Of a stretch of DNA of 64,000 bases, positions 55,801-58,800 are shown in pieces. Made by a program: the position numbers. Where the stretch lies: the IMG/VR virus record IMGVR_UViG_2537561946_000006; one strand, given 5' to 3'. The DNA comes from a virus (taxonomy: Duplodnaviria; Heunggongvirae; Uroviricota; Caudoviricetes). How positions within the stretch are numbered: position 1 is the first letter of the stretch; each line of letters starts with the position of its first letter.

Positions 55801-58800
55801 ATGCCGTAACATCCGTTTGGGATGCGACTGCCACGGCCCCGTGATTTCTCTGCCTTCGCGGGTTTTGAATGGTTCGCGGCGGCATTCATCCATCCACTCG
55901 GTAACGCAGATCGGATGATTGCGGTCTTTGCGGTAAATCCGGCATGTGCAGGATTCGTTGTCCTGTTCAAAGTCCATGCCGTCAAACTGCTGGTTTTCGT
56001 TGATGATGCGGGACCAGCCATCAACGCCCACCACCGGAACGATGCCGTTCTGCTTATCAGGGAAGGCGTAAATTTCTTTCGTCCACGGATTAAGGCCGTA
56101 TTGGTTGGCGACGATCAGCAATGCGATGAACTGCGCATCGCTGGCATCGCCTTTAAATGCTGTCTGGCGAAGAGTGGTGATCAGTTCCTGTGGGTAGACA
56201 GAATCCATGCCGACACGTTCAGCCAGCTTCCCTGCCAGCGTTGCGAGTGCTGTACTCATCCGTTTTATACCTCTGAATCAATATCAACCTGGTGGTGAGC
56301 AATGGTTTCAACCATGTACCGGATGTGTTCTGCCATGCGCTCCTGAAACTCAACATCGTCATCAAACGCACGGGTAATGGTTTTTTTACTGGCCCCGTGG
56401 CGTTGCAAATGATCGATGCATAGCGATTCAAACAGGTGCTGGGGCAGGCCTTTTTCCATGTCGTCTGCCAGTTCTGCCTCTTTCTCTTCACGGGCGATCT
56501 TCTGGTAGTGACGCGCCCAGCTCTGAGCCTCAAGACGATCCTGAATGTAATAAGCGTTCATGGCTGAACTCCTGAAAATGGCTGTGAAAATATCGCCCGC
56601 GAAATGCCGGGCTGATTAGGAAAACAGGAAAGGAGATTAGTGATTCAGGCCGTTACCGCGTCCGTCGAGAAAAACTTCTACGAGCAAATCACGGGTATAA
56701 GTGCGTTCGATGCCGCGATGCAGATATACTGGCAACTTTCCCGGCGAGCCTGGCTAACCGGGACCAGAACGAACTGAACGAAATCCGCCGCCAGTGGGTT
56801 CTGGCTTTCCGGGAAAACGGGATCACCACAATGGAACAGGTGAGCGCCGGAGTGCGTGTCGCCCGTCGGCAGAATCGACCATTCCTGCCATCACCCGGGC
56901 AGTTTGTTGCCTGGTGCCGGGAAGAAGCATCCGTTACCGCCGGACTGCCAAACGCCAGCGAGCTGGTTGATATAGTTTACGAGTATTGCCGGAAGCGCGG
57001 GCTGTATCTGGATGCAGAGTCTTATCCGTGGAAATCAAACGCGCACTACTGGCTGGTTACCAACCTGTATCAGAACATGCGGGCCAATGCGTTGACTGAC
57101 GCGGAATTACGGCGCAAGGCTGCCGATGAACTGTCCTGTATGACCGCACGAATTAACCGTGGTGAGGCTATACCTGAACCAGTAAAACAACTTCCTGTCA
57201 TGGGCGGTAGACCTCTAAATCGTGCACAGGCTCTGGCGAAGATCGCAGAAATCAAAGCTAAGTTCGGGCTGAAAGGAGCGATGAAATAGAGCTAAAGTAT
57301 TAGCTTAAAAATAAAGTATACCTAGCGAATATAATCTAGGACTAGTTGTAACGCCCGAAATGATTGATTGCGTGAGCAACAAAATTTTTCTTCCATTGTT
57401 GTGAAATCATTTAGCCATAAAGTTTATGCAGAGATTTTATTTTATTTTTGAGTTGATTTTTTTGTAACGAGCTGTATATTTCGCGCCTCTTGTCATACCA
57501 GTTATTTTTTTCATTATATTCATAACGTTGATTGAACTATGACCACTGTGAATAAAAAGTTAAAAAAAACTGCATCTGGCGCGATTACATGGTCGGTAAT
57601 TGTTACCCAGATATTATCTCCAGTTTCTCTTTCTTTGATCCCAGCAAACAGTTTTGCATCATCTGGTAATAAAGATGTTACGCAAACTTATGCCAGCGAT
57701 GAGCATGCAAATAAAGTGGCCTCATTTGCAGCAAGTGCAGGTCAGAGCCTAGCAAATAATAACGCAAGTAGTTTTGCTGTAAATACTTTATCAACTCAGG
57801 CGACAAAAGAGGTCGTCGACTGGTTGCAACAATATGGCAATGCGCGCATCAAGCTTAATGTCGATGATTCTTTTTCCTTGAAGGATTCATCATTCGACTT
57901 TTTATATCCATGGCTGGATACTCAGGATTATGTGCTATTCAGTCAGACATCACTACATCGTACTGATGACCGAAATCAGACCAATATTGGTTTGGGGATT
58001 CGTCATTTCACTCCTGATAACGCAATGTTGGGTGCGAATGTTTTCTATGATTACGATTTAAGTCGCAGTCACTCTCGTGCAGGTTTTGGGGTTGAGTACT
58101 GGAGAGATTATTTCAGGCTTGGTGTAAATACCTATTTTGGTTTGTCTGACTGGAAGAACAGTCGGGATATTGATGATTATCTGGAAAGACCCGCAAATGG
58201 CTGGGATTTTTCTGCTGAAGGATGGCTACCTGCTTATCCGCAATTAGGGGCATCCATTCAGTTTGAAAAATATTATGGTAAAAATGTCGGGTTATTTGGA
58301 AGCGATAATCTTCAGGAAAACCCTTACGCAGTTACTGGGGGAATTTCTTATACACCAGTTCCTCTGATTAAGTTTTCTGCACAGCATAAGCAAGGACAGA
58401 GCAACGTTCACGATACAACCTTTGGTGTTGAGTTTAATTATCGCCCGGGCGTTTCCCTTGCTGAACAGCTTAGCAGTGACAATGTTGCTGTTATGCGAGA
58501 AGTCCAGAACCGGCGTTATGATTTTGTTGAACGAAATAACAACATTGTTCTGGAGTACAAGAAGAAGCATGCACTGAAAATCAGCTTACCAGAGTCTGTT
58601 CAGGGGGAGGGGGAATCAATCATCCCTGTAACACTGACAATCAACAATGCTAGTGGTGGTATCAAGTCTGTACAGTGGAATGATAGTGCATTCACTGCGG
58701 CTGGCGGTAAGATCAGTGGAAATGGCACATCATGGCAGATCACTTTACCGGCTTATAAAAGCGGAGATGTAAATTCGTGGAATGTTGGAGCCACAGTCCA

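Follow-up and report, generated by a model that had tools for sequence, protein, structure and literature searches.

In DLP12, a defective lambdoid prophage of Escherichia coli K-12, the recombination region was fused by an internal deletion to a 3′ fragment of the replication gene P. Here we describe another lambdoid remnant with a fusion of this kind, found in a 64,000 nucleotide stretch of viral DNA (IMG/VR record IMGVR_UViG_2537561946_000006, Caudoviricetes), referred to below as the window. In this remnant, which lies at the tRNA-Thr gene thrW, the region upstream of the Red recombination genes gam, bet and exo is joined to the 3′ part of P. The junction was very probably left by a single deletion, made by illegitimate recombination within or between lambdoid prophage sequences at thrW. 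The fusion had been proposed from the window alone (the sequence-only reading), and intact relatives indeed hold the genes from kil to P between the two breakpoints.

In DLP12, exoD′ and peaD′ adjoin each other; exoD′ matches window positions 54771–55076 and peaD′ matches 56978–57279. The nin region of DLP12 (ylcH-ybcN-ninE-ybcO-rusA) is homologous to that of the remnant, which in this respect belongs with the DLP12-like group, and IS3 insertions are found in both elements. On the other hand, the deletion in DLP12 is larger, with bet, gam and most of exo gone and ~300 bp of P left. DLP12 is also located at argU, whereas the remnant occupies thrW and thus lacks the argU/intD location. Moreover, DLP12 keeps Q, the lysis genes and ren/emrE after P, and has no inverse autotransporter there. 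Since their breakpoints differ, the two scars are independent, and the different breakpoints together with the different integration sites rule out that the remnant derives from the same event as DLP12.

Intact DLP12-like lambdoid prophages of two strains, FDAARGOS_144 (at icd, apparently intact) and Rb-50 (at the torI/dsdC site), share the gene order of the remnant from the TraR gene through exo-bet-gam and again from P through ybcN-ninE-ybcO-rusA, and their nucleotide identity to it is 95–98% on either side of the junction. They differ in that they occupy other sites and retain full kil, an S24 repressor, cro, YdaT, an O-like gene, full P, Q and the lysis genes; the FDAARGOS_144 prophage continues into packaging genes (terminase small subunit).

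Two better known systems are functional analogies only. The recET genes of the Rac prophage, which are activated by sbcA mutations, are also a recombination module of a defective E. coli prophage and are normally unexpressed; Rac, however, keeps its own repressor region, so that recET is repressed rather than promoterless, RecE belongs to another exonuclease family, and there is no Gam. Engineered recombineering prophages, such as that of DY380, are locked-in lambda remnants with gam-bet-exo, but these constructs keep pL, N, nutL and cI857 and are deleted from cro rightwards, whereas the remnant described here lost exactly the pL-N-immunity part. With an integrase, a tRNA attachment (att) site and lambdoid gene order, and with the induction, replication, lysis and virion functions lost, the remnant is an unremarkable further case of the well-known defective lambdoid prophage kind.

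Pairwise BLASTN alignment to phage lambda gave two blocks, separated by window 56644–56726. The first (window 53950–56643) corresponds to lambda 30500–33193 with 96.8% identity and the second (window 56727–57279) to lambda 39721–40273 with 93.5% identity. The sequence-only reading had ended the lambda-like region upstream of gam at ~56640, and its coordinates are good to a few bases. Both breakpoints were mapped by comparison with lambda, PhiR30_1, FDAARGOS_144 and Rb-50, and alignment with the two parental types placed the break at 56726/56727. The sequence is ...GCAGATA/AAGCC in the left parents (/TAGCC in Rb-50), ...CCAGT/TACTGGC in the right parents and GCAGATA/TACTGGC in the window. The joint has no filler DNA, and the shared sequence amounts to 0–2 nt (TA, only if the parent had a kil allele of the Rb-50 type). 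Because there is no filler, at most 2 nt in common and no insertion sequence (IS) at the joint, we read the junction as a deletion by illegitimate recombination, with kil codon 39/40 on one side and P, from the second base of its codon 47, on the other. An IS-mediated or homology-mediated deletion is ruled out by the same absence of an IS and of more than 2 nt in common.

The junction was detected in 7 of 5426 complete E. coli genomes, in which the whole query was covered at 99.3–99.9%; five of them, taken to represent all seven, were fetched and inspected in detail. An exact 60-mer across the junction is present in these five independent assemblies and in one gut-metagenome contig, and the identity of the junction in independent complete genomes and a metagenome contig rules out an assembly artefact. 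No match to the junction was found in other species within a collection holding one genome per species. Likewise, no record of the phage collection covered at least 80% of the junction-spanning query, which rules out a natural phage layout that places gam beside P.

The ~85 bp between the two lambda-like blocks had been described as matching neither side. This holds for lambda proper, in which 56644–56726 has no counterpart, but not for other lambdoids, whose kil 3′ end it matches. A continuous match up to 56726 was seen in 15 lambdoid phages among the matches listed (including PhiR30_1, Turner and 4A7) and in the prophages of FDAARGOS_144 and Rb-50. On the minus strand, 56637–56726 (kil′, which ends at the left breakpoint) encodes the last 29 codons and the stop of a 68-aa Kil protein, residues 40–68 of the protein of FDAARGOS_144 and Rb-50. 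In these two intact prophages the 68-aa gene lies 76 bp upstream of gam and is annotated in RefSeq as "phage encoded cell division inhibitor protein". The full protein matched PHROG 294 (phrog_294, "Kil protein for bacterial septation inhibition") with an E value of 1e-37, and it resembles NCBIfam PRK11354 ("FtsZ inhibitor protein") with a score under the cut-off of that model. As the translation of 56637–56726 matches Kil residues 40–68, the interval has a known origin: judged by this translation, it is the 3′ end of a non-lambda, KilR-like kil allele, and orphan or inserted DNA is thereby ruled out. That lambda ceases to match at 56643 reflects an ordinary boundary between mosaic segments.

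To the right of the joint, the plus strand is open from 56729 to a stop at 57289, beginning with LATFPASLANRDQNE. The fragment (P′, 56727–57289, plus strand) starts at the second base of codon 47 and extends to the stop, corresponds to lambda P from residue 48 on (aligned to residues 48–231), and matched Pfam Phage_lambda_P with an E value of 5e-56. The identification of P in the sequence-only reading was therefore right, although its estimate of the C-terminal two-thirds was too low, since 187 of 233 codons, about four-fifths, are kept. The earliest in-frame start is the ATG at 56831, corresponding to Met82. As no usable start remains, P′ is a pseudogene; RefSeq labels it "incomplete; missing N-terminus" in the junction genomes.

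P′ is followed by an AT-rich spacer and an inverse autotransporter gene (57290–61090), which together occupy the place of ren after P and belong to the same prophage arm. The gene itself (57539–61090, plus strand) encodes an intimin/invasin-like moron of 1183 aa with five Big_1 repeats (Pfam IAT_beta, E value 4e-101). In the intact prophage of FDAARGOS_144, a longer version of the same inverse autotransporter follows full-length P.

The intact relatives still have the missing genes, and their gene order and orientation agree with those of the remnant. Between the positions of the two breakpoints lie 4307 bp in FDAARGOS_144, 3498 bp in Rb-50 and ~6.5 kb in lambda. In FDAARGOS_144, exo-bet-gam-kil is followed by a hypothetical gene, the S24 repressor, a cro-like gene, YdaT, the O-like gene and full-length P, and then by the inverse autotransporter, an alpha/beta hydrolase and ybcN-ninE-ybcO-rusA. 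We searched the whole window by tblastn with lambda kil, cIII, ea10, ral, sieB, N, rexAB, cI, cro, cII, O and ren, and with the equivalents from FDAARGOS_144 and Rb-50. Inside the remnant, only the P fragment and a 29–30 codon kil fragment were matched. Thus, no homologs of N, cI, cro, cII/YdaT or O were detected in the remnant by tblastn across the window, and an intact immunity or N region, which would have contradicted a deletion, was not found in the interval. O-like and cro-like matches at window 779–2427 belong to another prophage. It had been claimed that kil, cIII, N, the immunity region, cro, cII and O were all missing; this stands for all of them except kil, of which the 29-codon 3′ fragment stays.

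In the junction genomes, the remnant is located between tRNA-Thr (thrW) and yagU. Its left end in the window is an att core (47180–47225, plus strand) that consists of the 3′ 46 nt of tRNA-Thr and is identical to the tRNA-Thr of NZ_CP039404.1; collinearity with L007 begins at the same position, 47180, and ARAGORN found no complete tRNA at the att core. Next to it lies the integrase of the remnant, an ORF of 386 aa (47240–48400, minus strand) which corresponds to the "site-specific integrase" WP_001375035.1 that stands beside tRNA-Thr in the junction genomes. In all five fetched genomes, one IS3 lies close to the integrase and another truncates rusA, and the element is without Q, lysis or virion genes. 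These losses, together with the lack of counterparts of pL, nutL and N, bear out the description of the element as a cryptic prophage. As the same junction, thrW site and IS3 truncations recur in all carriers examined, the data suggest one old event that was vertically inherited. Later decay took different forms among the carriers: the SC isolates have lost part of the ea22 region, and in two of the seven junction genomes the inverse autotransporter is disrupted, by a frameshift in one and by IS66 in the other.

The remainder of the window, positions 1–47179, holds a second, apparently complete lambdoid prophage arm in tandem with the remnant. A cro-like gene (779–967) and an O-like gene (1507–2490) are followed there by large ORFs in lambdoid late-region layout, and window 1–25000 overlaps annotated terminase and portal genes. 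The same 25 kb is 99.8% identical to a prophage of strain Z1323HEC0423, where the junction is absent. Since the second prophage ends at the att core, the two elements form a tandem pair at thrW, of which the remnant is the inner one.

Two other features were noted within the remnant. The early-left arm carries a moron (50659–52105) made up of a gene for a PACE-family efflux transporter and a divergently oriented LysR regulator gene, placed between the xis-side genes and a dATP/dGTP pyrophosphohydrolase gene; this moron recurs in the intact Rb-50 prophage and in intS-associated remnants at argW. An Rfam scan of 47000–64000 returned isrC only (a Hfq-binding sRNA; 63685–63807, plus strand, 135 bits) and no match at the junction. 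The isrC match lies just inside the IS3 that truncates rusA and for that reason appears to be the IS3 leader.

The deletion took away the 5′ part of kil, the promoter-bearing early-left region, the repressor/cro immunity switch, YdaT (in the position of cII), the O-like initiator together with its origin, and P up to codon 46. The IS3 in rusA cuts the remnant further. What is left would no longer be inducible, replicate or kill the host and may simply be carried with the chromosome, while gam-bet-exo would now stand behind antisense P DNA without a recognisable promoter and undergo slow decay.

The same scar could also have arisen by deletion between two tandem lambdoid prophages at thrW, with the int-to-kil arm coming from the first and the P-to-rusA arm from the second, in which case ~40 kb or more was lost as against ~4 kb. 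Tandem lambdoid prophages at thrW do exist, as the second prophage of the window, ending at the att core at 47180, demonstrates, and the best matches of the two arms differ. Rb-50 is best for the left arm, with the same PACE/LysR moron, but has emrE after P, while FDAARGOS_144 is best for the right arm, with the same inverse autotransporter, but has a different int/xis end. Lambdoid mosaicism, however, predicts different best matches for each arm anyway, and the FDAARGOS_144 prophage by itself provides a match to each arm (96.8% and 98.0%), with order and orientation unchanged. A simple deletion of 3.5–4.3 kb requires no added assumption, so we consider an origin from two prophages unlikely; in any case, the scar and its consequences would be identical.

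The gene content to the left of the junction is that of a Red module, with gam, bet and exo in the lambda order, co-oriented, and homologous to lambda Gam, Beta and Exo. All three ORFs lie on the minus strand and are intact: exo (54797–55477) encodes a lambda exonuclease of 226 aa (Pfam YqaJ, E value 5e-29), bet (55474–56259) a Red beta of 261 aa (Pfam RecT, 3e-33) and gam (56265–56561) the 98-aa short form of Gam (Pfam Gam, 2e-64, with the full model covered). Bet and exo overlap by 4 nt, the same as in lambda. The proteins differ from those of lambda in 6 of 226 (Exo), 3 of 261 (Bet) and 3 of 98 (Gam) amino acids, in agreement with the near identity that had been noted from the window alone. 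A ribosome-binding site, AGGAG, is present 8 nt upstream of the gam ATG. There is no in-frame start upstream of this ATG (on the 56562–56600 side), and for this reason the 138-aa Gam annotated in lambda cannot be made here; the ORF begins at the ATG of the 98-aa form, which rules out the long form.

Neither stops nor frameshifts interrupt exo, bet or gam in the junction-bearing sequences that were examined. However, intact reading frames alone show neither Red function nor retention by selection. In Exo, V73I (codon 55259–55261) and W170G (54968–54970) were found only in the window, the gut-metagenome contig and three environmental SC isolates, M140I (55058–55060) only in the window and the metagenome contig, and K209R in SC434 only. 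Lineage-private changes in exo thus comprise 4 non-synonymous (V73I, W170G, M140I and K209R) against 2 synonymous. Trp170 is kept in all 6 other exo genes compared, and a 35-mer with Gly170 occurs in 3 of 5426 genomes, ~3370 of which carry that part of exo. As the private changes are mostly non-synonymous and the Gly170 35-mer is rare, they look like relaxed constraint.

Upstream of gam, the minus strand holds in order a 75-nt leader, the kil fragment, 563 nt of antisense P and the 250-nt AT-rich spacer. The leader (56562–56636, minus strand), which falls within the region of lambda homology to 56643, contains a terminator-like hairpin: the terminator scan detected a GC-rich stem (56612–56595, GCCCGGCATTTCGCGGGC plus GATATTTTCA) with a T-rich tail, between the junction and gam, and the same hairpin appears in the minimum free energy fold. 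A sigma-70 scan detected a single minus-strand site upstream of gam (57468–57439), with 9 of 12 consensus positions, and the promoter-like sites in the region are no more numerous than in shuffled sequence (3 observed against 2.2 ± 1.7). The native regulation of Red from pL with N and nutL is lacking. Lambda homology stops at lambda 33193, while nutL lies at 35518 and the pL operators at 35591–35651, and neither tblastn with lambda proteins nor the extent of lambda homology revealed a counterpart of pL, nutL or N in the remnant. The claim that the Red module has lost its native promoter and regulators is therefore upheld. With no recognisable promoter, a hairpin before gam, and N and nutL absent, the module is most likely silent or weakly transcribed.

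Three points weigh on the other side. The promoter scan covers consensus sigma-70 sites only, so that some transcription may still occur. The hairpin may correspond, by its position, to the lambda tL2 terminator cluster (Luk and Szybalski 1983), although the lambda records have no such feature. Finally, exo, bet and gam are intact while other parts of the remnant gained IS insertions, a frameshift and a deletion over the same period, a contrast that selection for Red could explain as well.

Junction-bearing lineages do not diverge uniformly. P′ differs in 1 of 561 positions and the inverse autotransporter in 6 of 3552, ~0.2%, whereas the Red block (53750–56600) and the nin block (62500–63700) differ by 2–3%. 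Within bet, 21 of the differences between these lineages are synonymous and 2 non-synonymous. Because the divergence is patchy, with blocks at 2–3% against ~0.2% in the DNA between them, the pattern fits a replacement of the Red and nin blocks after the deletion by alleles of other lambdoids, probably through gene conversion. The good preservation of the Red genes thus probably owes much to later homologous exchange. Results reported in PMC3945230 include an experimental demonstration of exchange between lambdoid phages and defective prophages.

Had the deletion instead placed gam-bet-exo by accident under a promoter active in the host, or within reach of read-through transcription, carrier lineages would show low constitutive Red. 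We consider this very improbable. If true, it would mean more exchange with incoming lambdoid phages and a natural proficiency for recombineering, of which the diverged Red and nin blocks would be the footprint.

Also very improbable is a domestication of the Red module by the host, in which a new promoter, for example a leftward one in the AT-rich spacer that separates P′ from the inverse autotransporter, would express genes kept by selection for recombination, repair or exchange with incoming phages. It would account for three intact Red ORFs in all junction-bearing sequences next to decayed neighbours, for the promoter-like site at 57468–57439 and for the good ribosome-binding site that gam retains. 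However, that 9/12 site is weak, such sites are no commoner than in shuffled sequence, and the terminator-like hairpin lies between it and gam. Moreover, the private changes in exo, including W170G, are mostly non-synonymous, only 7 of 5426 genomes carry the junction, and the mostly synonymous differences in bet resemble imported alleles and not the outcome of purifying selection in place.

We thus favour a single deletion at thrW that left the Red genes intact and most likely silent or weakly transcribed. It makes the bare RefSeq call "replication protein P, incomplete" precisely explicable, and in practice the Red reading frames of carrier strains could recombine with Red plasmids or incoming phages. 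For lambdoid prophages more broadly, the remnant documents one more route to prophage lock-in, in which a single deletion removes the host-killing, immunity and replication functions, and it offers a clean and dated case in which other lambdoids have probably overwritten homologous blocks of a remnant at a later time.

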